DNA of 64,000 nucleotides, from positions 1 through 64,000 of the IMG/VR virus record IMGVR_UViG_3300020576_005620; one strand, written 5' to 3'. Positions 16,751 through 63,034 of this stretch are shown here, in pieces. This DNA comes from a virus (lineage: Duplodnaviria > Caudoviricetes). Both the position numbers and the translations under genes were made by a program. Every line of letters starts with the position of its first letter. Position 1 is the first letter of the stretch. Under the pieces are notes generated by a model. The model was not told where the DNA came from. It worked only from the letters and a program-made list of their open reading frames with translations, and ran no database searches.

Positions 16751-18319
16751 ATGGAGTCTAAAGAACAAACTCTAATTGTGAACTTATTTGCTGGCCCAGG
16801 CGCCGGAAAATGTTTTTCAAGGGACATTGCTATTTTAATGCACGATGGGACCACTAAATTATCTCAAGATATAGTTATTGGTGATAGTGTAATGGGAAGA
16901 GATGGTACAGCAAGAAAAGTTGTAAAACTATTCAGAGGAATAGACCATATGTACCAAGTAACACCAGTAAAAGGCTCTCCGTTCAATGTAACAAGAGACC
17001 ATAAACTAGTTTTAGATTATACTAAAGCAAATTCTAAAGAGTTGTTACTTTCTCCAGAAGAAATTTTAGAATTATCAAATAGTAAGCAATCAAGGCTAAA
17101 ACTTAAGAGATCAGAATTAATAGAATTTGATTTTAGTGATGTTAAAATAGATCCTTATTTTCTAGGTATTTGGTTAGGGGACGGGCACAGTGATAATCAA
17201 ATAGTTACAACTGCCGACCTAGAAATTAAGAACTACTTAACGGAATATGGTGATTCATTAGGATTATCTACTAAAGTTCATGCAAAAAAAGGTTCTGCAT
17301 ACAGCTATAGCCTTTCTGTGCCTAATACTTGGACTAAGAATCCTTTGAGACAATCTTTAACAAAATATTCCTTAAAAAATAATAAACATATTCCCAAAGA
17401 GTATTTAACAAATCATAGTTCTATACGTCTTCAGCTGTTAGCTGGATTAATTGATAGTGATGGTTGGGTGGATAGTAACTGTGTTTTTATAGTTCAGAAG
17501 AGAAAAAAATTAGCTGAAGATATCACTTTTCTCGCAAGATCTCTTGGATTTGCAACCTACATAAGAAAAATAAATAAAACATGTGTGAATAACGGTGTTG
17601 TTGGAGAATATTGGAATGTTTCTGTAAGTGGTGACTTAAGTATTATTCCAACTAAGTTGAAAAGAAAACAATTTTCACCAAGGAAGCAAGTAAAAAATAC
17701 TCAACATACTGGTTTTAGCTTAAATTATCTTGGCTTGCAAAATTATTATGGATTCGAACTTGATGGAGATCATATTCATCTATTAGGAGATTTTACCTTA
17801 ACCCATAATAGTAGTTATGCTTCTGGGATTCAATACAGATTAAAAGTATCTGGCTACAATTCAGAGTACATACAAGAGTATGCTAAAGATAAAACTTGGT
17901 CAGAGGATAAACAAACCCTTCTTTGTCAACCATATGTTACCGGAAAACAGTTTTATAGAACAACAAGAATTATGAACAAAGTTGAGGTTGCTGTAACAGA
18001 TTCCCCAATTTTAACAGGTATTCTGTACCAACAGAAGAAAAGTAAACATTTTGAGTCTTGGGTTGTTGAAGCATTCAAAGAATGCAACAACTTAAATTTC
18101 TTTTTAGTCAGAAACACTGAACATCACCCGTATAATCCTGCAGGTAGAAGTCAAAGTTTGGAAGAGGCTATTGCAAAAGACAAAGAAATGAAAGATGTTC
18201 TTGATAAATATGACATCCCATATTTTGAAGTTCCGATACAAGCAGTTGATTTAGATACCTGGAGTGATCCCACTTTAGACTTTATATATTCGAAAATAAA
18301 AGAAACCCTAATTAAATAG
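16751..18319 (+). CDS. P-loop nucleotide kinase/ATPase (AAA_28/NadR-like) interrupted by an intein
   Basis: Exteins VNLFAGPGAGK|SSYA..., EYAKD..W, VTDSPIL, YNP.GR.Q. Confidence 0.85.
   Translation: MESKEQTLIVNLFAGPGAGKCFSRDIAILMHDGTTKLSQDIVIGDSVMGRDGTARKVVKLFRGIDHMYQVTPVKGSPFNVTRDHKLVLDYTKANSKELLLSPEEILELSNSKQSRLKLKRSELIEFDFSDVKIDPYFLGIWLGDGHSDNQIVTTADLEIKNYLTEYGDSLGLSTKVHAKKGSAYSYSLSVPNTWTKNPLRQSLTKYSLKNNKHIPKEYLTNHSSIRLQLLAGLIDSDGWVDSNCVFIVQKRKKLAEDITFLARSLGFATYIRKINKTCVNNGVVGEYWNVSVSGDLSIIPTKLKRKQFSPRKQVKNTQHTGFSLNYLGLQNYYGFELDGDHIHLLGDFTLTHNSSYASGIQYRLKVSGYNSEYIQEYAKDKTWSEDKQTLLCQPYVTGKQFYRTTRIMNKVEVAVTDSPILTGILYQQKKSKHFESWVVEAFKECNNLNFFLVRNTEHHPYNPAGRSQSLEEAIAKDKEMKDVLDKYDIPYFEVPIQAVDLDTWSDPTLDFIYSKIKETLIK
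16811..17809 (+). mobile_element. Intein with LAGLIDADG homing endonuclease (333 aa)
   Basis: Begins CFSRD, block B VT.DH, YFLGIWLGDG, LAGLIDSDG, ends LTHN followed by Ser. Confidence 0.92.
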
Positions 18320-50920: not shown

Positions 50921-51460
50921 ATGATAACGAACGAAACGAAAACTACCGGAAATTCACGAAGATATTACGTCAAGCCTAAGACTGGATCATTGACTGCCTC
51001 TTTCAGAGGTGAAAATGGTTTTGAAGATGCTGGACAGTTTAATTCTGTAAGTGGTAACCTGGTGTATGTCACTATTGTCAGAGACCCTGGTACGCAGAAA
51101 AGTAAAACTACCAAGGGATATGACGCTTACGATGCTCTTCAAATTCTTCTAGTTGATGAAACTACTAAAGAAGAATATGTAATTAGAAGTGATGTAAAGA
51201 GAACCTTTGCATGGCTTTTAGCTTCTAGACTTGCTGGTGTTAAAGCTGGTGATTTGGTGAAGCTAACCACAAGACCTGGAGACAAAGAAGAGGTAACTCT
51301 TCCAACACTTTATGTCTTTAGCGAAGTTACTGAAGAGTGGGTACGCGTAGAAGCTGAACAATTTCCTGAAGGTAGGGATGAGAAAGTAGCTCTCGGAATA
51401 CAGAGAGTTAAAGAACATCCTTCCTATAAGGACTTTGATGAACCTGCTACAAGTGCCTAG
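50921..51460 (+). CDS. Hypothetical beta-rich protein, possibly ssDNA-binding
   Basis: OB-like beta pattern, acidic tail, own terminator; function is a guess. Confidence 0.35.
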   Translation: MITNETKTTGNSRRYYVKPKTGSLTASFRGENGFEDAGQFNSVSGNLVYVTIVRDPGTQKSKTTKGYDAYDALQILLVDETTKEEYVIRSDVKRTFAWLLASRLAGVKAGDLVKLTTRPGDKEEVTLPTLYVFSEVTEEWVRVEAEQFPEGRDEKVALGIQRVKEHPSYKDFDEPATSA

Positions 51461-51509: not shown

Positions 51510-52019
51510 ATGATGAATGTTTTAATTGTCGCTGCACTCGTTTTGAATTTTCAGAACTCTGCAGTCGAAGTAAAGGGTCAAGAAATTGACCAAGCAGCTA
51601 AGAAACAAATTGTTTCTCTCTTCCCCGGTACGAAAGCACCGCCTAAACAAACTCCTTTACAGGAAAAGTACAGGTCCTTTCTAAAGGGAGATGTCAATGC
51701 TGTCAAACCAAGAATTATGAATTCTACTGCCTACCTTCCCACAGATGGTTCTTCAAGAAGTCTTACTGCTTCTGGTAGAACTGCTAGAAGAGGCATTATT
51801 GCAGTAGACCCAAGACAAATTCCCATGCATTCTCTAGTTTATGTAGAGAATTATGGATGGGCTGTTGCGGGGGATACAGGTGGGGCAATCAAGGGAAACA
51901 TTATTGATGTTTGTATTGAGAGCAGATCCTCTTGTATGAATTGGGGTAGAAGAAAAGTTAAAGTTTGGGTGTATCCACAAAAAATTACTTCTGACCTGAA
52001 AAGAAGAAAAACACGCTAA
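51510..52019 (+). CDS. Secreted 3D-domain (MltA-like) cell-wall protein
   Basis: STAY, TASG, IIAVDPR.IP, YGWAVAGDTGGAIKGN.IDV, WGRR.V.V. Confidence 0.9.
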   Translation: MMNVLIVAALVLNFQNSAVEVKGQEIDQAAKKQIVSLFPGTKAPPKQTPLQEKYRSFLKGDVNAVKPRIMNSTAYLPTDGSSRSLTASGRTARRGIIAVDPRQIPMHSLVYVENYGWAVAGDTGGAIKGNIIDVCIESRSSCMNWGRRKVKVWVYPQKITSDLKRRKTR

Positions 52020-52053
52020 TATATGGGGAGACTTCTCCCCATTAAAATTACTT

Positions 52054-52989
52054 ATGAAAATCCTGAAATTTAACGAGTTCAACAAATTTATTAGTCTTTT
52101 CAAATGCCACGCTGAAACAAAACAACTTCCTACTTTTTCTCAAGCTCAAGCTCATTGTAAGGATTTAACTGAAGAGTCTTATAAAGAAATTATGTTGGAC
52201 CTCGCACTTACCAACATGTCTGCGTCAAGAACTTCTTGGGCTCTATTGAAAAATATAGAAACTTTTGGTTCTCTATCCTATTCTAAGGATTTCGAACCTG
52301 AGATTGGAAAATTATCTATTCTGGATCTTTATGAGCATAGTACGGTTTCAAGTAATCATATTTCTCATAGATCTTACTTCTTGCAAGCTAACGAAGATAT
52401 TTCCACCATGGCTTTAAATGTATCCAATATAAAAAGAAGAATAGAAAAACAGCTGATATTCTCAGGTGTTACAATTGTATCTATTTATTTTGGTACTTTT
52501 AAACAAACTGCCTCTGTCTTTCCAGACTATCAAAAAGAACACTCTATGTATTCTCAGGTGTTTGGCGGCGTTCCTTACATGTTAAATGAAGCAGATGGTG
52601 GTTATTACAGTTATCTAGGCCCGGCATTTTTGGTTGAGTTCCAAATGGAGCTTGAAGATGGACGAAAAACACGTCAAACAGTTTGTGTAACTACTATTGA
52701 ATTGGTAAATGAGGTTATTAAACGCTACCCGAACTACTACCAAAAAACTGGGTACCCACATTCTAACCACGATGTAATTGCTCTTTGTACAGACTATTGT
52801 GAAAGAGAAGAACTACCGGGTGCAGTTGACGGACAGTTAACAAACATTTTTTCCAACCCTAGAAGCTTAACACAATGGTTTCTTAGTTCTTGCCTGTTGG
52901 CTCAGGCACAAAAAGGAAACAAACTTAAAGGTTTAGATGTAAGTAATTCTTCAAAGGTAAAGAGGCTGAAGGAACTGCTTGATGTATAG
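52054..52989 (+). CDS. Hypothetical protein, paralog 1 of a Cys-motif trio
   Basis: C-terminal YCER..LPG..DG.L..IFS.P.SL..W...GL...K...LKELL. Confidence 0.55.
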   Translation: MKILKFNEFNKFISLFKCHAETKQLPTFSQAQAHCKDLTEESYKEIMLDLALTNMSASRTSWALLKNIETFGSLSYSKDFEPEIGKLSILDLYEHSTVSSNHISHRSYFLQANEDISTMALNVSNIKRRIEKQLIFSGVTIVSIYFGTFKQTASVFPDYQKEHSMYSQVFGGVPYMLNEADGGYYSYLGPAFLVEFQMELEDGRKTRQTVCVTTIELVNEVIKRYPNYYQKTGYPHSNHDVIALCTDYCEREELPGAVDGQLTNIFSNPRSLTQWFLSSCLLAQAQKGNKLKGLDVSNSSKVKRLKELLDV

Positions 52990-53629
52990 CATTGGGATAA
53001 ACGGTTACTTCTTTCCACTAGAAGAGAAGAATGACTTAGAAAATAAAAGCTTTCAGGATTTGTTAGCTAAGAAATTGGAAATTTTTCCAGTTAGTATAGA
53101 ATCTGTTACTCGTGGGTTTTATATTCAACTCTTCAATACTTTATCAGAGTATGAAGAATCATTCTATCCATCTGAATCTAAGAGAAGAAAGCTTTATAAG
53201 TCTTTGTATAAGCACATAAATCGCAAAGATTTTGAGAATTTTCATGTTGATTATGAGGGAAATGATTTTGGTTACCAATATTTTTCTTCGGCTTTTGATG
53301 TTAAGTTAGTATGTGAAAAAAGATTCTTTAATGTAATTGTTGCAACTAAAGAAGACATTAATCTTTACTTAACAGAATATGAGAAACCAGAAAACTACAC
53401 TATACCGAGTGATACAGTATTTGTCGCATCTACATGGTGCCAAAGATGTTCCTATCCTGGTTCTGAAGATGGGGATATAATGAGCATTTTCTCAGATCCA
53501 ATGTCTGTTGAAACATGGATTATGAATCACGCCCTTCCAAAACTCCAAAGAGATGGATTAACTGTTCCTGGTCTAGAGACATCTTCTAGGGCAAACATAA
53601 GCAAACTTAAAAAACTACTTGAAACCTAA
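52979..53629 (+). CDS. Hypothetical protein, paralog 2 of a Cys-motif trio
   Basis: WCQR..YPG..DG.I..IFS.P.SV..W...PGL...KLKKLL. Confidence 0.55.
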   Translation: MMYSIGINGYFFPLEEKNDLENKSFQDLLAKKLEIFPVSIESVTRGFYIQLFNTLSEYEESFYPSESKRRKLYKSLYKHINRKDFENFHVDYEGNDFGYQYFSSAFDVKLVCEKRFFNVIVATKEDINLYLTEYEKPENYTIPSDTVFVASTWCQRCSYPGSEDGDIMSIFSDPMSVETWIMNHALPKLQRDGLTVPGLETSSRANISKLKKLLET

Positions 53630-53721
53630 ATTGTAAGATATGAAACTATGTATATATCAAGGAGAGTGCATATGGTAGACGTTAGGTAGGACTTAGTTTC
53701 CTACCGTTCCGAAAAAATACC

Positions 53722-54213
53722 ATGACAAACGAAGCACGCGTTCTTCTTAATTCATCACAGATTGGTCCTGACTGCATGGTCCTGATCAACCTCTCAAACA
53801 ACGACAACTCTAGCAAGAGAATCAACGTAAACGAAAGTATTACGCTGAAGGATCTTGGTCTGGGTGGCGGTTCTACCGCACAGGCCCCTAACTGGGCTGA
53901 CGCTCAGGCAAAGATGACCGTTGTTTGTGCAAACCCAGCTCTGTCAGCTTCTGAAAAGGCTGCTGCTGTGCAACAGATTACGAAGGACTTCACCGACGCT
54001 AGCGCCAAGTACCAGGAGGTAAATGGCGGTAACATCACCGACATGGTTGCTGTAAAGGCAGCCTCTTTCATCTGCGAAAAGTACGGCTTTTCGTCAACCG
54101 ATAAGGACGGTACTGTTGTCCTGAAGGCCGAAAACCTTCTTGTTTCAACAATGATTACTCCTAAGGGCGAACTGCTCTTCAGTGTCACCGGCACTGCTGT
54201 TTGGGGTAAGTAA
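53722..54213 (+). CDS. Putative ubiquitin-like (beta-grasp) protein with a helical insertion
   Basis: MVLINLS...SKRINVNESITLKDL N-terminal pattern; C-terminal strand LLFSVTGTAVWG-K; GC-richer codons and its own terminator. Confidence 0.35.
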   Translation: MTNEARVLLNSSQIGPDCMVLINLSNNDNSSKRINVNESITLKDLGLGGGSTAQAPNWADAQAKMTVVCANPALSASEKAAAVQQITKDFTDASAKYQEVNGGNITDMVAVKAASFICEKYGFSSTDKDGTVVLKAENLLVSTMITPKGELLFSVTGTAVWGK

Positions 54214-54217
54214 TCTT

Positions 54218-54246
54218 TTTGGCTGGGGGAAACCCCAGCCAAATTT
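54218..54246 (+). terminator. Intrinsic terminator
   Basis: TTTGGCTGGGG-GAAA-CCCCAGCCAAA followed by TTT. Confidence 0.8.
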
Positions 54247-54265
54247 CTATTTTTTATAAACCCAA

Positions 54266-55702
54266 ATGAAAACTATTGACCTTAAGGAAAAACTTCAGAA
54301 TTTCAAAGAAAACCACTTCTGGGGGGCTCCGACATATAATACAAGAGCTTTGTCATCAGGTGGTTATTCTTTCGCTTTAACCCTACCTAAAGAATTTGTT
54401 GAGAAAAAGTTTGGAATTCCTAGTGTACTAGCTGCTAGGTTTTATTCTCAAAACGCACCCTCTGGACGAGTTAATCTACATAACCTAGATCTTTCTCATA
54501 TTTCCGTGGAGGAGGGTGTATGTAAGGTTAAAAAGCCGACTCAAAAACCAAACCTTACACCACAAAACTACTCAGCAATAAGAGAAGAATTTATTGAGAA
54601 ATTCCCCGAGGCAAATGTTTCTCAATTCTTAAACATTATTTCTCCATATGCAAATTCAAGCTATGCTTCAATTTTTGTAAACTGGATAGTAGAAAACTAC
54701 ACGTCTCAAACTTCTTCAGAAGTTTCTGAAGAATTGGATTTTCAAAATGATATGATTTCTAAGGAAAATCCTGGTTTCAGAGTAAGATTTAGAAAGAAGT
54801 CACATGATACTGGTTCTGAAGTCTACAGTGTAGGTGCAGAAATTGTTAATCTTATCACTGAAATCTTTGGTGTTTCTAATTACTACGTCTCTAGTTATCT
54901 ACAAACAAAAACAAAAGTAAATCCGCTTGCTGTAAGTCCCCTGGATCTTAAGTCATTTAGGGTTCCAAAGCCTGGTGAGCTTACAGACAAACAAATTAGT
55001 GAATATCTTTCTCTACCAGCACGAAGAATCTCAAGCTGGGTTACTGTGTATTCACATAAATGTGAACTTGATTTTGAAGAAAGAGAAAGGGTTCTTGAAA
55101 TTGTAAAACAAGAACTAGCTTTGGTTCCTGATGTAGAAGTTACTGACATCTCTCAAAGATACATTATGTATGTATCTGACGAATCAGGTGAAAAGAGATG
55201 GGAGCTTACGCAGGATGCCTTCAATCACCCTAAATTTGGCAAGAAGATCTTTGAAAATACAAAGATGGCTGGCCATGATGTAAGTGGAAGCGTAGTCAGT
55301 CCTGCAGTAATTTACATTGGCAGGGCATGGGCTGTTCACTATACTGTTGGTGGTCTTGATCCTTTAGCTGGAAACCACGTTCTTGTTGCTACTGAAGAAC
55401 AAGTAAGAGAAGCTTTTAGTCAATATAGACCTGACCTTCTTCCTAGCGATTGGAAACCATGGGCTCCGCTTATGTATATTGCCAATCCTCAGTGGTGTGA
55501 ACGAAATGGTTCTCATAACTATCATCGAGGCTACGACCTATCTTCACCTATGCAGAGAAGAAACTCCCTTCTTACTTGGACACTAGGTTCTCTTGCTAGC
55601 AGGTACAGAGAAAAGACTGGTAGTGAGCTTCCAGGTATTATGACAACTAATGGTGTCAGTAATAAAGCTAAGCTCGCTAAACTAGAACAACTATTGAAAT
55701 AA
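54266..55702 (+). CDS. Hypothetical protein, paralog 3 of a Cys-motif trio
   Basis: PLMYIANPQWCER...SLLTW.L...PGI...KL.KLEQLL; IYIGRAW.V matches YLGPAF.V of 52054. Confidence 0.55.
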   Translation: MKTIDLKEKLQNFKENHFWGAPTYNTRALSSGGYSFALTLPKEFVEKKFGIPSVLAARFYSQNAPSGRVNLHNLDLSHISVEEGVCKVKKPTQKPNLTPQNYSAIREEFIEKFPEANVSQFLNIISPYANSSYASIFVNWIVENYTSQTSSEVSEELDFQNDMISKENPGFRVRFRKKSHDTGSEVYSVGAEIVNLITEIFGVSNYYVSSYLQTKTKVNPLAVSPLDLKSFRVPKPGELTDKQISEYLSLPARRISSWVTVYSHKCELDFEERERVLEIVKQELALVPDVEVTDISQRYIMYVSDESGEKRWELTQDAFNHPKFGKKIFENTKMAGHDVSGSVVSPAVIYIGRAWAVHYTVGGLDPLAGNHVLVATEEQVREAFSQYRPDLLPSDWKPWAPLMYIANPQWCERNGSHNYHRGYDLSSPMQRRNSLLTWTLGSLASRYREKTGSELPGIMTTNGVSNKAKLAKLEQLLK

Positions 55703-55710
55703 AGAACAAA

Positions 55711-56451
55711 ATGTATAAACTAATTGTAGTAGGGGCTGGCTCTCTTGGCGAAGACTTCTGTATTGAAGCTGCCAGGAGAGCTTTTGCTCAACAAATGCCA
55801 CTTCAAATAACACTTATTGATTTCGACACTATTGAAGAGAGAAATCTGGCTTCTCAAGGATTCCTTCCTTCAGAAGTTGGAACTTTGAAAGCAGAGAGCG
55901 TTATCAACCGAATATCACAGTTTCCTCTTATTACTGCGAAAGCAGTAACAGAAAAGGTTACTGAGGAGAATTGGGAGTCCCTACTGGAAGTAGATGAGAA
56001 TACAACTATTGTTGACGTAGTAGATAACTATCCTACTCGTGTTCTTCTATGGACAGCTGGACAGGCTCTTAATGTTCCAGTATTGCACGCAGGAATGGCT
56101 ACTGATGGAAATGGCCAAGTAAGTTGGAATTATAAAGAAATGGATTCCTTCTCGTTGTCTCCTAAAAATACTTCACCTGATATGCAGGCTAAGTTGAAGG
56201 AGGCACCTGATGTTAAACTTCCTCCGTGCCAGCTTAATGCTTTTAGGCAGTTGATTAGAAATACAGCCATGGCTGCAGTCACTGCTTACTTTATCTCCAT
56301 TGGTTGTGACAACACTAAGACTTTTATGAGTGATGGTGAAAATGTTGCAGAAAGAGGCCTTTTCTCTACTTGGAAGACAAGTATTAATTCTATGAACTAC
56401 TGGAAAGAAATGACTTTCTACATTGACCCTAATGGAGCACCAAGTGAGTAA
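55711..56451 (+). CDS. ThiF/E1-like adenylating enzyme
   Basis: VVGAGSLG, LIDFDTIEERNLASQ, GTLKA, DVVDN..TR; candidate catalytic Cys in LPPCQL. Confidence 0.9.
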   Translation: MYKLIVVGAGSLGEDFCIEAARRAFAQQMPLQITLIDFDTIEERNLASQGFLPSEVGTLKAESVINRISQFPLITAKAVTEKVTEENWESLLEVDENTTIVDVVDNYPTRVLLWTAGQALNVPVLHAGMATDGNGQVSWNYKEMDSFSLSPKNTSPDMQAKLKEAPDVKLPPCQLNAFRQLIRNTAMAAVTAYFISIGCDNTKTFMSDGENVAERGLFSTWKTSINSMNYWKEMTFYIDPNGAPSE

Positions 56452-58819
56452 CGATTCTCCTGGAATGAAAATTATTAATGGTAAGCCTTTCTATTTAGAA
56501 GAAGACGTAACCTACACGCCGGAACATTCAAAGACACCAATTCTTGCAAAAATAGCAAGCTTCTTTGAGAATGATAGAATTTATCTTACCTATTCTTCAC
56601 CAACTGGTGAAGTTTATACATCAGTTTCTCCAAACACAATCAAGAAGTTGACAGAGGACAACTCTGTTTTAAATCCTGGAGAACTGACTGCGAGGGCAAT
56701 TGAGGATATCTTTGAAGAGCAGTTTTCCAAAGAAGTTGAGGAATCTGTAATAGAGAAGAAGTTTGAATTAGATCAAAACTCCTTTATGTACTACAAAAAC
56801 CTTAAGATTGGGGATCATGTTATATTCAGGGATAACCCTGGTGATTACACAGGTTCGTGGTCTGGTTTTGGAAAGACAGCTGTTGTTACTGCAATAAATC
56901 GGAAGGAGGAGGGGTTTACTGCGAAGATTGTTGATGGCGGTAGTTATGTCAATGCCTGGTCAAATCAAATCTTCAGAGTTCTCACCCCAATTAAGGACGA
57001 TGATAAGCCAGCAACACCAAAGGCTCTCCCTATTTATGAATCTGGTAAGGTTCTTTTCCTAGACAAGCAGTATGTTCCTCTAGGATTTAGCAGCAACTTA
57101 GTAAAGGTTAATTACTATAATGCTGAGACAGATACTTACTGTGTAGATTTCATTAAAACATCGGATCTTCCTAAGGAAGCTTTGGCTTTAGCCAAGGATT
57201 TTCTGGTGCCTAATGGTACTATTAAGAGCTATGTAGATGGTGGTCAGGACATGAACTACCAGCCTACCACTAGCAGTAGCTCATCTAAGTCCACCCCTTC
57301 CACATCATATAATACAAAGGTGTATTTTAAGGTGTATGGCGGAAATATCCTCTATCCAACTTACTTTAACAAAGATGAGATGGATAAAGCCATGGCTAAG
57401 ATAAGCTATGAATCTGAGACGGTTGATGGTCAACTGTCAAAAGTCTTTACCATTAAACCTGAGCATACTGCTTGGAAAAAGGATACTTCTAAGAATCCTT
57501 TAATGTGTGCCTATGATGCTACCTCAAAGTTCTTAGATTCGATCTTAGGTGTTAAGATTGACTCTGATGATGCCTCGTGGTATAAATCTCATCCGTTAAT
57601 TACAACTAACGGTCTTCCACAGGAGCACACTATTACTGTATTGAATGATCTTGTATCTATTTACGGTATTGGTATTAAGAAGGTTTACTGTAGAAAGGGC
57701 ACTTCTGCATTCCCAGAAACTCTTAAATGGCAGCAGGTACTAGGTATTAATCCAACTGCTCAAATGACTCGAGATGCATCTAATGAAGAATTCCTAAGCT
57801 CTCTTCCAGAAGAAGCTAGAGAATTTCTTAATGCGTCTTCTTGGGATTTTGAGTATGTGGACGAACTTCCGAAAGTTCCACTTGTTATTATGAATGGTGG
57901 TTCAGGTTCAACAACTTGGGCTGCTGGTTTGGGACATGCTAGTTATTCCTCTCCTAGGGGATATAAAGGCAATGGTTGGTATATTGCACTTTCTTACGAT
58001 AGAATCGAAAACTGTAATAGATTTGTAGATCCACCAACAACAGCTGGTACAGAAGGTACTAACGATATTCTTGATATTTCCAACTGTAAGGATGATGAGG
58101 GCAACCTTATTAAAACTAGTGTCGAAAAATCCTATAGTTGGCAGAACTCTTCTAATAGTGGATATAAGTCATCCGAAGGAGGCCCCCAATCGGGAACCCC
58201 TTTTCAAAACAGCCAAAAGAAGAATTCAGCCAAGAAACCTTCTGGAATGGATACTTCGACTACTACGATAGATACCGCTCTTAGATATGCTTCGGGTGAT
58301 ATTAAGAGATTCAAAGCAGCTGGTGGGATTGGTCTTTCTAAGAAAGGTGCCCATCCTCTGATGCAAGGTTTTACTCATTTTTTAAAAACCTTGGGTTTAA
58401 AAAAAACTGACTTAACCAACTGTGATCTCAAATATTCATCGCCCCAAATTAGGAAGATAGCTGCCTATTTTGCTGAGAACTTCTGCAATGCAGAATTCGA
58501 ATATCCATACCCAAATGTGGAGGATGGTCTTATGTATCTTGCAGATTGTGCTAGCTCTCTCCCTGTTGGACCAAATAAGGAAGTTCTTTCTTATTCGGAA
58601 GTCTATGAAAGGTTCGAAGATAAGGTTGAGAAATTTCTTGATTTCTTAATCATTGATTGTGGGTATCTAAACACTTACGCATTTCTTTGCGCTATCTACA
58701 CAAAAGTGAAGTTGATTCATCCTAAGTCTTCAAAAGAAGACTTTACAGATGAACACTATCAACTTATGTTAAATGATTTGTGGGAAGCTTTGCATCCTAG
58801 TGACGATACTCTTTACTAA
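56444..58819 (+). CDS. Large multidomain protein with a candidate papain/C39-like cysteine peptidase domain
   Basis: MCAYDA...NGLP.....VL....GI...LPKVPLVI...GHA spacing; GTG start with GGAG RBS. Confidence 0.4.
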   Translation: MSNDSPGMKIINGKPFYLEEDVTYTPEHSKTPILAKIASFFENDRIYLTYSSPTGEVYTSVSPNTIKKLTEDNSVLNPGELTARAIEDIFEEQFSKEVEESVIEKKFELDQNSFMYYKNLKIGDHVIFRDNPGDYTGSWSGFGKTAVVTAINRKEEGFTAKIVDGGSYVNAWSNQIFRVLTPIKDDDKPATPKALPIYESGKVLFLDKQYVPLGFSSNLVKVNYYNAETDTYCVDFIKTSDLPKEALALAKDFLVPNGTIKSYVDGGQDMNYQPTTSSSSSKSTPSTSYNTKVYFKVYGGNILYPTYFNKDEMDKAMAKISYESETVDGQLSKVFTIKPEHTAWKKDTSKNPLMCAYDATSKFLDSILGVKIDSDDASWYKSHPLITTNGLPQEHTITVLNDLVSIYGIGIKKVYCRKGTSAFPETLKWQQVLGINPTAQMTRDASNEEFLSSLPEEAREFLNASSWDFEYVDELPKVPLVIMNGGSGSTTWAAGLGHASYSSPRGYKGNGWYIALSYDRIENCNRFVDPPTTAGTEGTNDILDISNCKDDEGNLIKTSVEKSYSWQNSSNSGYKSSEGGPQSGTPFQNSQKKNSAKKPSGMDTSTTTIDTALRYASGDIKRFKAAGGIGLSKKGAHPLMQGFTHFLKTLGLKKTDLTNCDLKYSSPQIRKIAAYFAENFCNAEFEYPYPNVEDGLMYLADCASSLPVGPNKEVLSYSEVYERFEDKVEKFLDFLIIDCGYLNTYAFLCAIYTKVKLIHPKSSKEDFTDEHYQLMLNDLWEALHPSDDTLY

Positions 58820-58972
58820 AATTTGTTACTAGGTACTTTAGGTTTTTCTTCATTTTGTCCTAAAGTATCTGGTAACATACCTATGTGGACAGCATACTAA
58901 ATATCCTGAAACTACTAATGTCAATAGGAAATGTACTTTCTGATATAGTGAGAGCTGTATCAATGGCATACA

Positions 58973-59695
58973 ATGCTTATTGCAGCTCGCATACGGATGA
59001 TAGCTATTGCCAGTCCAACTAGTGATGACAAATGTGGGGTGGCAACACCCCAACAGATCTTTTTTTTAATTATGGAACCCCCGAAGCTCTTTAAAATGGC
59101 GGAAGCCGCAGTCCGCAGTGCAAATTTTAAATCTAGATTTAATCTGGATGTCTGCGATGATGCTGTTTCTATCGTCTATGGTAATCTTTTAAAAGCTTCT
59201 TCTTCAGATTCTTTACAGGGTGATCCTTATAATTATTTGAAGAGGTGTGCTACTAGAATGGCTAATAAAGTCTATACTCGTTCTACTCTACCTGGATACC
59301 TAGCCGTTGAGCCTAACTGGGTCCCAAACGGTTTGACAGAGCAAACTGTAGAACTTTATACTTGCAAAAGTACCTATTCAGAAGAAACTTACAGAAATTG
59401 TTTGAGAGAACCTTTAATGGTTGAAACTCTTACAGAAGCTGTTTACGAAAAGACAGAATTAGAAAAACTTCTTAAGAGAGTTAACTCTATAAATAACAAT
59501 AACTACGATAAAGTTTTTAATAAAGACAAGTTTTTCCTAAAAGTAGCTCCTCTAGTACTTTCCTGTCTTATTGATAATGGTAGTTTGGAAGATATTAAGG
59601 CTGAGTTTTTTAGAAATAAATTATCTGAGCTGACTAAATTTTCAGAAAAAATAATTCCTAGAATAGAAAGAATAGAGAAGTATTTAGAAAAATGA
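58973..59695 (+). CDS. Possible divergent sigma-factor-like protein
   Basis: DDAVSIVY..LL......DP.NYL.R.A.R.A resembles sigma region 2; true start is probably the ATG of MEPPK. Confidence 0.3.
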   Translation: MLIAARIRMIAIASPTSDDKCGVATPQQIFFLIMEPPKLFKMAEAAVRSANFKSRFNLDVCDDAVSIVYGNLLKASSSDSLQGDPYNYLKRCATRMANKVYTRSTLPGYLAVEPNWVPNGLTEQTVELYTCKSTYSEETYRNCLREPLMVETLTEAVYEKTELEKLLKRVNSINNNNYDKVFNKDKFFLKVAPLVLSCLIDNGSLEDIKAEFFRNKLSELTKFSEKIIPRIERIEKYLEK

Positions 59696-59888: not shown

Positions 59889-60170
59889 ATGCGTCAAAAT
59901 CTAAAACTACACTGTCAAAGTTTCCTCCACTGTGAGGGATCTGAAATTACATGTTCTTGCGGGGCATATACGCCCGCACTTATCCATACCGAATGTCTTG
60001 TTGAAACTGCTGGAAAGCATGTCAACGAACTAACGAAAGAAGACTTCGACGATAAAGAACAAAAAACAATAGACACAGTTTGGGAATGTGCTTGCGGCAA
60101 CCAGCACACTTCCACTATTCATCCACCAACCATTGATAAAATCACAATTGAGACCAAACTAGACAAATGA
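59889..60170 (+). CDS. Small Zn-binding protein
   Basis: CSCG and WECACG motifs. Confidence 0.45.
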   Translation: MRQNLKLHCQSFLHCEGSEITCSCGAYTPALIHTECLVETAGKHVNELTKEDFDDKEQKTIDTVWECACGNQHTSTIHPPTIDKITIETKLDK

Positions 60171-61432
60171 GCACTTCCCTTAAAATCGAACAAGAAGCAA
60201 CTTACACAATGACTGGCCGAGAGGCTGCGCAAGCCTTAATGTGGGCTTATGATGTCGAAAGGACTGAGGGTGAAAGATGCGTTATGAATCTGATCGGCGC
60301 ACCTGGCAATGCTAAGACCAGTATTGTTCAACAGTTTACGGAGAAACTTCGTAAAGTCAGAGAAGATCAACAGCTTGGTACAACAGCTTTGTATTCCCTT
60401 CGACTAAACCAGGCAGACCCTACAGACTTGAAGGGTGTTCCCTGCTTTATCGAAGTTGACGGAAAACAAATGTGTACTTTTGCTTCTCCAGAAGTTTTTC
60501 CTCTAGTAGGATGTCCAACTTCTGGCAAAGCTGATTTTGTGGTAATTCACCTTGATGAAATGCCACAAGCACCAAAGAGTATGCAAAATCTTGCTGCTAA
60601 TATCATTGACGGAGTTATTGGTGACAATACCCTAGACTTTTCTAGAACTCTTATTATCACATCTGGAAACAGAAAGCAGGATAACGCTGCTACTTACGAT
60701 ACACCATCAAACGTAAAAACTCGACTAACAACTATTAACATTAATTTGACATATGATGAATGGCGAACATGGGGTATCGAAACTCAAAAAATCTCAGGTG
60801 TTGTACTTGGTTTTCTGGAAAATTACCACGGTACTTACTTCCAACACCCTAATCCACCTGCTGACCTGGTTACTTATCATAATCCAAGAACGTGGCATAA
60901 GGTAAGTTCTTTTATCAAGGCTTGGCCAGGAACTCTTACGGAGTGGGCTAAGTCACCTTTAACACCTTCAATTGTTTCTGGAACAATTGGCGCAGGAGCT
61001 GCAGGACCCTTCCTAGAATTCTGCAAAACTCTTGATTCGCTCAATATTGAGAGTGTTTGTGCAGGTCACAGTCCGGCAGCACCGTCCTCAGAGAAGATGG
61101 ATGTATGGTACATGGCTTGCGGTGAATTTGCATTCCGAATCAGCAAGATGGGAAGCTATCTAGAAAAGATAGTAGAGCAGAAGAAGGTTGAACCTAATGC
61201 TTCGATGCTGACTGAGGAAGACAGAAAGGTTCTCAAGAATATTGGTGACTGGATGCTCAAAGCCTATAAGGATGGCAATGCAGACGTAGCCTTTATTACT
61301 CTTGTACATAGACTTCAAAGCAAGGCGGCTATTAATACAATCAGAAAGATTACTAATACTACCGAAGAGTTTAAGTCTTGGAGGGAGTTGATTAACATTC
61401 TTGCAAGTACTGCTAATACTAGGACCGGATAA
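60167..61432 (+). CDS. MoxR-like AAA+ ATPase
   Basis: GAPGNAKT, LRL.Q.DPTDLKG.P, IHLDEM.QA, GNR..D.A, PR.W..VS. Confidence 0.85.
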   Translation: MSTSLKIEQEATYTMTGREAAQALMWAYDVERTEGERCVMNLIGAPGNAKTSIVQQFTEKLRKVREDQQLGTTALYSLRLNQADPTDLKGVPCFIEVDGKQMCTFASPEVFPLVGCPTSGKADFVVIHLDEMPQAPKSMQNLAANIIDGVIGDNTLDFSRTLIITSGNRKQDNAATYDTPSNVKTRLTTININLTYDEWRTWGIETQKISGVVLGFLENYHGTYFQHPNPPADLVTYHNPRTWHKVSSFIKAWPGTLTEWAKSPLTPSIVSGTIGAGAAGPFLEFCKTLDSLNIESVCAGHSPAAPSSEKMDVWYMACGEFAFRISKMGSYLEKIVEQKKVEPNASMLTEEDRKVLKNIGDWMLKAYKDGNADVAFITLVHRLQSKAAINTIRKITNTTEEFKSWRELINILASTANTRTG

Positions 61433-61681
61433 TTGTGAGCAACAAAGTAGTAATAGTGCCCGTTATAGATAAAAATAAGGGGCACTATCCCGAAAGCATA
61501 CTAGTCTTTAACAATAAGATGGTATACTTTGTTGATAAAGAAATCGGCAAAGAATTTCTTAGGAAACAGATTGGTAATGATAAAGCATTTTTTAAGGCCT
61601 ATGATGCTGGATTTATTTCCTTAAAAGTCATTGAGGATGAAGATAGTGTAGAAGACATTATCCAAAAAGGAGAACTATACA

Positions 61682-63034
61682 ATGGATGAAGCAACGTTAG
61701 AAAAAGTAGAAACTAAACCGGAAAATAAAGCACCTGATGCTACACCAGAGGAGCTTAGGGCAATTAAGGAAACATATTCTAGTGACAGAAATCAGCTTCT
61801 TCTTCAACATCCATGGTTTGGCATGATTATTATGGGGCTTTCTCTTAATGCAAGCCAAGAAATTCCTATTGCTGGAGTCACCTATACTAAAATCTTCTTC
61901 AACCCAATCCACTCCTCTAGAAGAAAAAATGGCTGTAAGAGCTATCCAGAACTAAAATCTGACACAAGATTGTTTCTTTTGTGTCACGAGCTTCTACATC
62001 CATCGTTAGGGCACTGCTCCTACCCAGCAAGTAATGCCTATAACCACAGGCTTCAAAATATTGCAATGGACGCTGTTATTAACAGAATTCTTTGTGACAA
62101 GGGTGGCAAGTTTTCTTCCTATAAGGAAGCAATTAGAACTGATATTGCTGGTGGTGTATTTATAGGATCAGATACTGATGTCCTAGAAATTGGGATCCCA
62201 GGTTCTGATACTTTTTACTCCATCAAAATTCCAGGTCTTTTAAATGCAGATTGGCCCTATATTTACGAGTGCCTAATTAAGGCTTCTCAAGGCTCTGATG
62301 CTGGAAAACTAAAGATAGCGGCGGAGGCTTTTGGTGATAAATTTCTCGATACACTAGAAGATCCAGAAGCAGATTCTTCTTCTTTGTCTACAGATAGAAC
62401 CAGCTTTTTGACCAGAGTAAGCGGAATTTCCCAAAATCATTCTTCTACTCCAGGCTCTTGTCCAGGTGAGGTTGAAATGTACATTAGTGCCCTTTTCTCT
62501 CCTAAGATCTCCTGGACAAGAAGATTGAGATCTTCTGTTGAACAAAGCATAGTTAAGGAAGATTTCTCATTTAGAGTAAATTCAAGAAAAGCTCATATTG
62601 CTATCCTTCCACTCTTAGATCCCAAGCCTGTTTACAATGTCTACGTTGCTCTAGATACTTCTGGTTCAATGTCGGACAGGGATATTTCAGAGGCTTTGGG
62701 TGAGTTGAAAGGTTTGAGAGATACCTACCCTATGACTTTAACAGTTATTCAATGTGACTATGCAATCAGTGACGTTAAAGTCTATGATGATTCGCAGGAT
62801 ATTAACTGGGAAAAATTTTCAATAGCTGGTAGGGGCGGCACTACTTTTGTTCCGCCAATTACTTATGTAAATGAGCTGTATGAAAACGGAGAGATTGCGC
62901 CTCCGTCAGTATTTGTCTATTTTACAGATGGCTATGGAGACTTTCCAGAACAACCCGAGTACCCTGTTATTTGGGTAAGAGCTAAAAATGGTTACAAAGA
63001 TTTTCCATTTGGGGAGATAATTGATATTGAGTAG
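61682..63034 (+). CDS. Metallopeptidase-vWA protein (DUF2201-type)
   Basis: HELLH...H, NIAMD.VIN, ALDTSGSMS (MIDAS), GRGGTTF, YFTDGYG. Confidence 0.88.
   Translation: MDEATLEKVETKPENKAPDATPEELRAIKETYSSDRNQLLLQHPWFGMIIMGLSLNASQEIPIAGVTYTKIFFNPIHSSRRKNGCKSYPELKSDTRLFLLCHELLHPSLGHCSYPASNAYNHRLQNIAMDAVINRILCDKGGKFSSYKEAIRTDIAGGVFIGSDTDVLEIGIPGSDTFYSIKIPGLLNADWPYIYECLIKASQGSDAGKLKIAAEAFGDKFLDTLEDPEADSSSLSTDRTSFLTRVSGISQNHSSTPGSCPGEVEMYISALFSPKISWTRRLRSSVEQSIVKEDFSFRVNSRKAHIAILPLLDPKPVYNVYVALDTSGSMSDRDISEALGELKGLRDTYPMTLTVIQCDYAISDVKVYDDSQDINWEKFSIAGRGGTTFVPPITYVNELYENGEIAPPSVFVYFTDGYGDFPEQPEYPVIWVRAKNGYKDFPFGEIIDIE

Follow-up and report, generated by a model that had tools for sequence, protein, structure and literature searches.

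What does a ThiF/E1-type adenylating enzyme activate when a tailed phage encodes it on its own, with no cofactor pathway beside it? The question is raised by a gene cluster at positions 52,054 to 58,819 of the window analysed here, the first 64 kb (64,000 nucleotides) of the 194,459-bp IMG/VR virus record IMGVR_UViG_3300020576_005620 (Duplodnaviria; Caudoviricetes). The source is, to judge from the record, a large uncultured tailed (jumbo) phage, and the cluster occupies a non-structural region of its genome: the head and tail genes lie far off, at about 160-176 kb and on the opposite strand. Since CheckV rates the record as 84% complete, absences from it constitute soft evidence. Besides the E1-type enzyme, the cluster encodes a small protein with a conserved C-terminal glycine, three paralogs that share a cysteine-containing domain, and a protein of ~798 aa. 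We propose that these genes specify a phage-owned, E1-dependent module that uses the small protein as a tag through its C-terminal glycine, with both the tag and its carrier belonging to new families; we infer the chemistry, and we put the probability of this reading at roughly four in ten.

The enzyme is a true member of the ThiF/E1 superfamily and stands alone, without a cofactor pathway. Its 246-aa sequence matches Pfam PF00899 with 66.6 bits (E = 2.4e-18; cut-off 28.1), and a six-frame search identified the gene at 55711-56451 as the only ThiF gene in the whole genome (66.7 bits). The absence of thiamine or molybdopterin genes nearby, noted in the original prediction for this locus, which had been built from the letters and open reading frames (ORFs) of the window, extends to the genome as a whole, which contains no match to ThiS/MoaD (PF02597), rhodanese (PF00581) or the PP-loop family ATP_bind_3 (PF01171). 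Across PHROGs, Pfam, NCBIfam and PADLOC, the E1-type enzyme is the sole protein of the cluster with any family match. Its nucleotide- and Mg-binding motifs are intact (GAGSLG at residues 8-13, Asp37, Lys60, and DVVDN at residues 102-106 with Asp102 and Asp105), are invariant in an alignment with MoeB-like proteins, and also align with the active adenylation domain of Uba1. Furthermore, Cys173, situated in a PPC loop (KLPPCQLN), aligns with the cysteine of the PxC loop in MoeB-like proteins, is invariant in five of the five aligned sequences, and is presumably the acyl- or sulfur-accepting loop cysteine. The enzyme carries neither a rhodanese nor an E2 fusion.

The candidate substrate is a 163-aa protein, here called the tag, whose gene lies 1.5 kb upstream of the E1 gene and whose C-terminus reads AVWGK. 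A word-based search retrieved only two relatives, which end in VWGN and VWG, but when 1.84 billion representatives were searched exhaustively with a profile, 67 clusters (defined at 50% identity) emerged at E ≤1e-3, 40 of them at E <1e-10. The relatives are nearly all 145-167 aa long and nearly all aligned through the last profile position. Conservation of the penultimate glycine had been set beforehand as a refutation test of the original prediction, and Gly162 turned out to be the only invariant column of the 65-sequence alignment, the mean column identity of which is 26%. Trp161 is present in 56 of the 65 sequences, with Phe or Met in most others. As for what follows the glycine, 39 of the 65 sequences stop exactly there, 25 continue for 1-10 variable residues, and one lacks the motif; 18 of the extensions comprise one residue (ten different kinds), three comprise two or three, and four comprise five to ten.

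An invariant terminal glycine combined with free variation beyond it points to the carboxylate of the glycine as the functional group, and the pattern at the C-terminus indicates an E1 substrate or its precursor. In ubiquitin-like proteins (Ubls) and sulfur carriers the C-terminal carboxylate likewise has this role, and the same holds for the CD-NTases (cGAS/DncV-like nucleotidyltransferases) of type II CBASS, the cyclic-oligonucleotide-based anti-phage signalling system (PMC10097602). Two consequences follow from the observation that 60% of the tags end in a free glycine. First, covalent use of such an end needs ATP-dependent activation rather than transpeptidation, which is E1 chemistry; second, these tags need no trimming, so that a peptidase exposing the glycine is not an obligatory part of the module.

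The tag family, with its 67 clusters, is widespread in uncultured phages and absent from the GenBank phages, IMG/VR and bacterial genomes searched. Searches of GenBank phages yielded no match with the tag, the smallest of the three paralogs (P0008) or the ~798-aa protein (P0010) as tblastn queries, or with the region 52000-59000 as a blastn query. No related loci were found in IMG/VR, whether the query was the E1 or its alignment, any of three alignments of tag subfamilies, or either of two single tags, and a scan of one-genome-per-species bacterial contigs likewise returned no related locus. Close relatives are thus rare and were encountered in metagenomes only.

Expression signals set the tag gene apart from those around it. 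As the original prediction had noticed, its codons are GC-richer and it possesses its own terminator: the G+C content is 49% compared with 33-42% in the neighbours, that of third codon positions (GC3) is 0.53 compared with 0.26-0.34, and an intrinsic terminator directly follows the stop codon. Among two-fold degenerate Y-ending codons, the C-ending share is 0.74 in the tag gene and 0.25-0.40 in its neighbours, and this value is the highest among the 269 ORFs of at least 90 aa in the genome (mean 0.36, standard deviation 0.11). The structural genes used for comparison (genome positions 170645-171907, 163691-165472 and 162872-163669, all on the minus strand) reach 0.72 for the major head protein, 0.67 for a 265-aa structural protein and 0.61 for the tail sheath. 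Because the codon bias of the tag gene exceeds that of the head protein and the tail sheath, very high expression can be predicted, which suggests that a gene lying away from the structural module yields the tag in amounts that equal or surpass those of virion proteins. The leader (within 53660-53721) consists of an AAGGAG sequence followed by a five-codon mini-ORF (ATG GTA GAC GTT AGG TAG, 53672-53689) and a 7-bp hairpin (53686-53706) just 5' of the ATG of the tag gene, which has no obvious Shine-Dalgarno sequence; these elements may represent leader-peptide or 5'-hairpin control or a stabilising element. Even taken on its own, the family deserves attention for its apparent expression above that of the capsid protein, for a sole invariant position at what is, in most members, the last residue, and for a confident structural model that matches no known fold.

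The three paralogs (P0007, P0008 and P0009) share a C-terminal domain of ~125 aa. In BLASTP comparisons, P0007 matches P0008 at E = 4e-14 and P0008 matches P0009 at E = 2e-6; P0007 and P0009 align in the same register at E = 0.18. Searched with a hidden Markov model (HMM) of this domain, the genome yields these three proteins and no others (P0007 at E = 8.6e-60). The shared (W/Y)C.R cysteine that had been proposed for them is borne out by the BLASTP and HMM results and by the motifs themselves; across five domain sequences with 23-55% identity, Cys-x-Arg is invariant, and no His occurs among the invariant columns. In an AlphaFold model of P0008 obtained from a four-row alignment (predicted local distance difference test score, pLDDT, 72.5; predicted template modelling score, pTM, 0.73), the predicted elements run helix, strand, helical insert, strand, strand, helix, strand, Cys loop, helix, helix. 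This order is compatible with the UBC fold of E2 enzymes but is not evidence for it.

Evidence that the tag and the Cys domain belong together comes from a second, distant phage. Two metagenome scans for related loci were made, one of which was empty; the other produced two loci, L002 and L003. On the first, a JGI metagenomic phage contig of 8.9 kb, the tag homolog (40% identity) ends at Gly, and the gene directly upstream encodes a protein of 352 aa that retains the CER motif and is recognised at its C-terminus by the Cys-domain HMM (E = 8.6e-14). This adjacency implies that the tag and the Cys-domain protein form a conserved core. The link between the tag and the E1 is documented differently: the longest contig listed measures 23,282 bp for each of a ThiF ortholog (P0003, 76% identical), a tag homolog (P0083, 85%) and a Cys-domain homolog (P0084, 44%), and 10,820 bp for both a ThiF ortholog (P0004, 51%) and a tag homolog (P0085, 42%). 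The matching lengths are circumstantial evidence of tag-E1 linkage in two relatives. Two other contigs, of 24,356 and 116,625 bp, also hold relatives.

Two further observations concern the neighbourhoods of these genes. An unannotated 179-aa protein encoded at 50921-51460 of the window has a homolog at positions 5609-6196 of L002 (35% identity, E = 8e-31), upstream of the Cys-domain/tag pair, so the conserved block may exceed the cluster delimited here. At positions 562-1553 of L003, a tag homolog ending in VWGDI is followed by genes for two pentapeptide-repeat proteins, not by Cys-domain or E1 genes.

What the E1 acts on, which proteins are targeted and how each step proceeds chemically are inferred, as follows. 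The 163-aa tag would be made in abundance from its own transcription unit and would lose a single extra residue, Lys163, which has no counterpart in most relatives. The ThiF-type E1 would then adenylate the free carboxylate of Gly162 with ATP, and the acyl group would move to a thiol, either that of Cys173 in the PPC loop of the E1 or that of the invariant cysteine of the Cys-x-Arg domain. With their differing N-terminal regions, the three Cys-domain proteins would serve as carriers or specificity factors that deliver the tag to amines on host or phage proteins, and the ~798-aa protein would be an accessory that might function as adaptor, target or peptidase. A more far-reaching form of the proposal, which we regard as rather unlikely, holds that the tag and the thiol carrier lie outside the ubiquitin and UBC folds altogether, so that an abundant tag of ~160 aa, with strands near its two termini and helices in the middle, a minimal E1 that activates its invariant terminal Gly and a Cys-x-Arg carrier would make up a pathway of lytic jumbo phages in which the variable N-terminal regions of the carriers choose host or virion targets. 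Were this the case, E1-driven conjugation would have been invented here independently, or the cluster would be a branch of it that has diverged beyond recognition, and it would serve the virus rather than oppose it.

Table 1. Predicted features of the phage cluster around the E1-type gene (window coordinates)
Feature	Coordinates	Strand	Remarks
Cys-domain paralog 1 (P0007, 311 aa)	52054..52989	+	unique N-terminal region; shared C-terminal domain ~52594-52986, YCER
Cys-domain paralog 2 (P0008, 216 aa)	52979..53629	+	smallest paralog; Cys154 and Arg156 invariant (WCQR); database gene call starts at ATG 52982
Leader of the tag gene	53672..53706	+	AAGGAG, then mini-ORF and hairpin; read from the sequence
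Candidate tag / E1 substrate (P0001, 163 aa)	53722..54213	+	ends VWG-K; new phage protein family
Intrinsic terminator of the tag gene	54218..54243	+	11-bp stem with 7 GC pairs; T-rich tail
Cys-domain paralog 3 (P0009, 478 aa)	54266..55702	+	large unique N-terminal region; shared domain ~55301-55699, WCER
Minimal ThiF/E1-type adenylating enzyme (P0002, 246 aa)	55711..56451	+	Pfam PF00899
~798-aa protein (P0010)	56423..58819	+	ORF overlaps the 3' end of the E1 gene

Three genes of the cluster are tightly packed (Table 1), which speaks for the proposed module: the third paralog ends 8 nt before the start of the E1 gene, and the latter overlaps the ORF of the ~798-aa protein. Position 56444, formerly taken as the start of this ORF, does not coincide with a start codon in its frame, where the candidate starts are TTG 56423, ATG 56432, GTG 56441 and ATG 56465. 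The product comprises three blocks parted by Ser/Gly/Pro-rich linkers (approximately residues 276-296 and 566-615). Its middle block contains Cys362 and His505, 143 residues apart; the original prediction had called such Cys/His spacing papain-like, but by itself it means little. The protein matches no family, no PDB entry, no GenBank phage and nothing in the ESM Atlas, and the isolated middle block has no family match either, papain-like and C39 peptidases included.

Several observations weigh against the proposed E1-dependent use of the tag. With respect to the enzyme, it lacks the N-terminal Arg-finger helix and begins at the first Rossmann strand, where MoeB-like proteins have ~29 more N-terminal residues. 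In addition, it reads ERNLASQ, with Ser in place of the Arg in the NLxRQ motif of MoeB-like proteins and Uba1, and with Arg44 four residues earlier; both the lack of the helix and the ERNLASQ arrangement are kept in two orthologs (76% and 51% identical). Moreover, when a three-sequence profile of the enzyme was compared with the PDB, the best match was the dehydratase Tcd1, which forms the cyclic N6-threonylcarbamoyladenosine (ct6A) of tRNA (E = 1e-7, 34.9 bits), followed by Uba1 (E = 2e-6, 30.6 bits).

The structure predicted for the tag gives no help to a ubiquitin-like reading. The AlphaFold model, built from the 65-sequence alignment (pLDDT 90.8, pTM 0.72), consists of strands at residues 19-25 and 35-41, helices at 58-70, 76-102 and 105-121, and strands at 139-145 and 151-157, and its last residues are ordered (a strand or bridge at 160-161 according to DSSP) instead of forming a free tail. 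Foldseek found no significant match for the model in the PDB (best E = 0.07), VIA-align against ~48,000 PDB cluster representatives gave a best Z of 6.4 that reflects a helical hairpin only, the best match in BFVD had E = 0.12, the ESM Atlas returned none, and sequence and profile searches of the PDB with the tag family were empty. The modelled arrangement agrees with the strand pattern described in the original prediction, in that a pair of N-terminal strands precedes TLKDL and another pair leads into the C-terminal tail, but the beta-grasp fold that the pattern had suggested went unmatched in the PDB, BFVD and the ESM Atlas. The order of elements is formally compatible with a beta-grasp that carries a large helical insert, and no search supports that fold; because the long helical hairpin fills the match lists, these fold searches barely tested the sheet.

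The Cys domain likewise resembles no known fold or family, and the E2/UBC fold once suggested for the paralogs finds no match. The P0008 model has no significant fold match (Foldseek best E = 1.3; VIA-align best Z 4.8, below the usual noise level); RWD-domain rows appear in VIA-align at Z 3.5-4.3, which is not significant, and no E2 is among the best 50 matches listed. With all five Cys-domain sequences, Pfam searches at E ≤10 returned no family except for one DUF5891 match at 0.089, and the sequence and profile search of the PDB was empty; at E ≤1, the genome contains no UQ_con match. The HPN motif is missing upstream of the cysteine in the paralogs, as it is in many bacterial E2-like families. 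A peptidase, which had been included in the suggested cascade, was not found either: no known peptidase family matches any cluster protein, and the 194-kb record (84% complete) contains no Prok-JAB match.

The comparative evidence also has its weak side. No ThiF gene is present within the 8.9 kb of L002, where an RNA-ligase-like gene follows the tag, implying that the link to an E1 is either not universal or not local. Furthermore, synteny is weak evidence of common function because related phages often keep their gene order. In sum, the E1, the conserved glycine and the three Cys paralogs of the conjugation cascade first envisaged for this phage have been upheld, and its beta-grasp tag, E2 fold and peptidase have not.

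An alternative, which we consider unlikely but take to be the strongest of the rivals, is that the E1-type enzyme has nothing to do with the tag. In that case it would most plausibly be a TcdA/Tcd1-type dehydratase, one of the small E1-superfamily enzymes that work without a Ubl, and would adenylate the carboxylate of N6-threonylcarbamoyladenosine at position 37 (t6A37) of tRNA to yield ct6A; the tag and the Cys-domain proteins would belong to a system of their own, with Trp-Gly-COOH serving as a motif for docking or assembly. The lead of Tcd1 over Uba1 in the PDB profile search fits this explanation, as do the likewise missing counterpart of the NLxRQ Arg in Tcd1 and the match to the E. coli-type TcdA (E = 3.5e-4 in the PDB profile search; E = 2.2e-5 in NCBIfam). 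The window encodes 12 tRNAs, including Lys(UUU), Met and Ser(GCU), together with one transfer-messenger RNA (tmRNA); the Cys-domain/tag pair without ThiF in L002 and the ordered tail of the tag model point the same way. However, all PDB sequence and profile matches of the enzyme (Tcd1, Uba1, ThiF, MoeB and Uba4) extend over no more than the common Rossmann part (residues 4-147) and are a few bits apart, and among the curated models those for ThiF and MoeB (52.6 and 50.9 bits) outscore that for TcdA, which reaches 24.3 bits against a cut-off of 304. The PADLOC matches are confined to the same part, the best being Cap2 E1-E2 models (E = 4.3e-7), with BilD at E = 6.5e-4. With matches limited in this way, the subfamily of the enzyme, and hence its substrate class, is not settled by sequence. 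A dehydratase would presumably have no need of the invariant PPC cysteine, and a docking motif leaves unexplained why the last residue of most tags is the sole invariant column and why 0-10 residues of any kind can lie beyond it.

Activation of Gly162 could also serve sulfur transfer, a possibility to which we assign a low likelihood. Here the E1 would adenylate the glycine as in the proposed tagging, and a persulfide passed through the conserved cysteines would convert it to a thiocarboxylate for a phage-specific thio-modification of tRNA, DNA or a metabolite, as in the pairs ThiF-ThiS, MoeB-MoaD, TtuC-TtuB and Uba4-Urm1, the carriers of which end in Gly. The curated models closest to the enzyme are indeed those of ThiS/MoaD adenylyltransferases (TIGR02356, 52.6 bits; NF006395, 50.9 bits; MoeB; SAMP E1), with the highest curated scores falling on the Rossmann part, and the enzyme keeps the aligned PxC cysteine of MoeB-like proteins, whose equivalent in ThiF is used in sulfur transfer; in addition, the carrier gene is bordered by several genes for proteins that have one invariant Cys, and the phage is rich in tRNAs. 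Against this, no score reaches an equivalog cut-off in NCBIfam (275 bits for TIGR02356), the tail is Trp-Gly and not Gly-Gly, and the 194-kb record has no rhodanese, ThiS/MoaD family member, PP-loop thiolase or other sulfur-using enzyme, nor does any scanned protein match cysteine desulfurase. A catalytic carrier, moreover, need not be expressed above the level of capsid protein.

Equally improbable in our estimate is a core made up only of the tag and the Cys-x-Arg protein, in which the Cys domain, as a peptidase or transpeptidase of the cysteine type, would trim the tag or join it at the glycine, with the E1 being lineage-specific or unrelated. The adjacent tag and Cys-domain genes of L002, in the absence of an E1, are what this explanation predicts, the extensions found in 40% of the tags need removal, and an invariant Cys and Arg recall the pair used by sortases and L,D-transpeptidases. 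However, the 60% of tags that end in a free glycine offer no scissile bond, and the Cys domain, with no His among its invariant columns, matches no peptidase or sortase fold or family. The remaining candidates were rejected: a role in the virion, for instance as tail tube (helices make up ~40% of the tag model and its gene is far from the head/tail module at 160-176 kb, although the tag may yet be incorporated into virions), a PRTRC cassette (ParB is missing, and the E1 scores 41.7 bits with PRTRC_ThiF, for which the cut-off is 144.75), and a precursor of a ribosomally synthesized and post-translationally modified peptide acted on by an MccB-like enzyme (the putative substrate is a folded 163-aa protein).

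Other E1-type genes turned up in phage records. With the E1 as query, tblastn against GenBank phages returned only generic ThiF or MoeB genes. One such moeB match, in CAKLQH020000004.1 ('Acinetobacter phage MD-2021a'; locus L007), is flanked by kdpA, kdpB, folB, acsA and ubiB, and its surroundings look like bacterial chromosome rather than phage DNA. In Virus Rctr197k (KX853510.1, a phage of ~200 kb; locus L006, 3037-6685), a 207-aa ThiF-like gene belongs to an operon that otherwise consists of overlapping hypothetical genes and adjoins a tRNA array, and none of the ThiF neighbours matches the tag HMM or the Cys-domain HMM; this locus may represent a different phage E1 system.

As to the rest of the window, all its long ORFs are on the plus strand, and it also encodes an RNA ligase and a nicotinamide phosphoribosyltransferase. 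Just 5' of the cluster, the gene at 51510-52019 encodes a 3D-domain protein (PF06725, E = 4.5e-17; in PHROGs, peptidase or L-alanyl-D-glutamate peptidase families) that is probably a cell-wall hydrolase. Downstream are encoded a MoxR-like AAA+ ATPase (60167-61432; phrog_1297, E = 2e-45) and, at 61682-63034, a DUF2201 protein to which Pfam assigns two domains, a putative metallopeptidase (E = 6e-19) and one resembling VWA (E = 5e-11), and for the family of which the PHROGs label 'HNH endonuclease' looks like a misnomer. This pair (60167-63034), which we take to be a common combination in phages, was considered as a part of the cluster and rejected, given that three small ORFs intervene and that no linking evidence was found. 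At 16751-18319, far from the head genes, lies the gene for a 522-aa P-loop protein with weak and mixed PHROG matches (terminase large subunit at E = 3e-19, primase, helicase loader).

Returning to the proposed tagging module, a parallel in the form of the C-terminus is found in Atg7 and its substrates. Both Atg8 and Atg12 end in an aromatic residue followed by Gly, with Atg12 ending at the glycine and Atg8 having a single residue or short extension removed, an arrangement mirrored by the VWG, VWG-K and VFG-R ends of the phage proteins. By this analogy the (V/A)(W/F)G tail would fit E1 chemistry. The parallel ends there, in that Atg8 and Atg12 are beta-grasp proteins, Atg7 is a large E1 with an additional N-terminal domain, and no relationship was detected between the sequences.

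Among phages, the only ubiquitin-related module found in a literature search is that of lambda and T1, in which tail assembly protein I, a Ubl with a conserved Gly at the end of the Ubl domain, is paired with the JAB/NlpC peptidase TAPK (PMC1779556). In contrast to the present cluster, to whose genes it is unrelated, this module has no E1, belongs to the tail genes, and combines the beta-grasp with a second domain. Literature searches found no account of a phage-encoded E1 with a tag of this kind, and what appears to be new here is the pairing of the tag family with a new Cys domain.

The prokaryotic systems known to employ E1-type enzymes for tagging follow a matching logic and offer further likenesses. 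In type II CBASS, the E2-E1 fusion protein Cap2 activates the C-terminus of a folded protein that is not a Ubl, namely the CD-NTase, and Cap3 is the JAB component (PMC10097602; 10.1101/2022.03.31.486616); the phage cluster, in contrast, has no E2 fusion, JAB, CD-NTase or effector, and its putative substrate belongs to a dedicated family of small, apparently extremely abundant proteins. If the phage E1 does activate the tag, the beta-grasp rule for E1 substrates, already relaxed by CBASS, would be loosened further. The Bub systems comprise diverged sets of E1, E2 and Ubl in which, for example, intermediates can be oxyesters, the E1 can lack a catalytic Cys, and peptidases of new families occur (PMC11601596). 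Such departures from the textbook scheme mean that unrecognisable parts do not exclude conjugation chemistry, although the parts of Bub remain structurally recognisable as E2 and Ubl and the operons encode peptidases, neither of which is apparent in the phage cluster.

Similar in layout is Bil (BilABCD, the bacterial ISG15-like conjugation system; 10.1101/2023.09.04.556158; PMC10557695), which likewise clusters the gene for an E1-type enzyme with those for a partner that has one essential-looking Cys and for a protein whose C-terminal Gly is conserved. The present genes differ from Bil in residing in a lytic jumbo phage and not in a host defence island, in the absence of a JAB deubiquitinase from the genome, and in consisting of a 163-aa tag without a detectable beta-grasp, a Cys protein without a detectable UBC fold but present as three carrier paralogs, and an additional 798-aa protein. 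Accordingly, membership in Bil, Bub or CBASS fails on the features tested: there is no JAB and no recognisable E2 or Ubl, and the similarity of the E1 is at the level of the Rossmann part. Were the proposal to hold, the Cys-x-Arg domain would define a new carrier analogous to E2, and phages would covalently mark host or virion proteins or counter host defence that relies on conjugation. Current work on prokaryotic tagging by E1 enzymes treats it as a defence against phages, exemplified by CBASS Cap2, Bil and Bub, and a module owned by the virus would reverse this picture.

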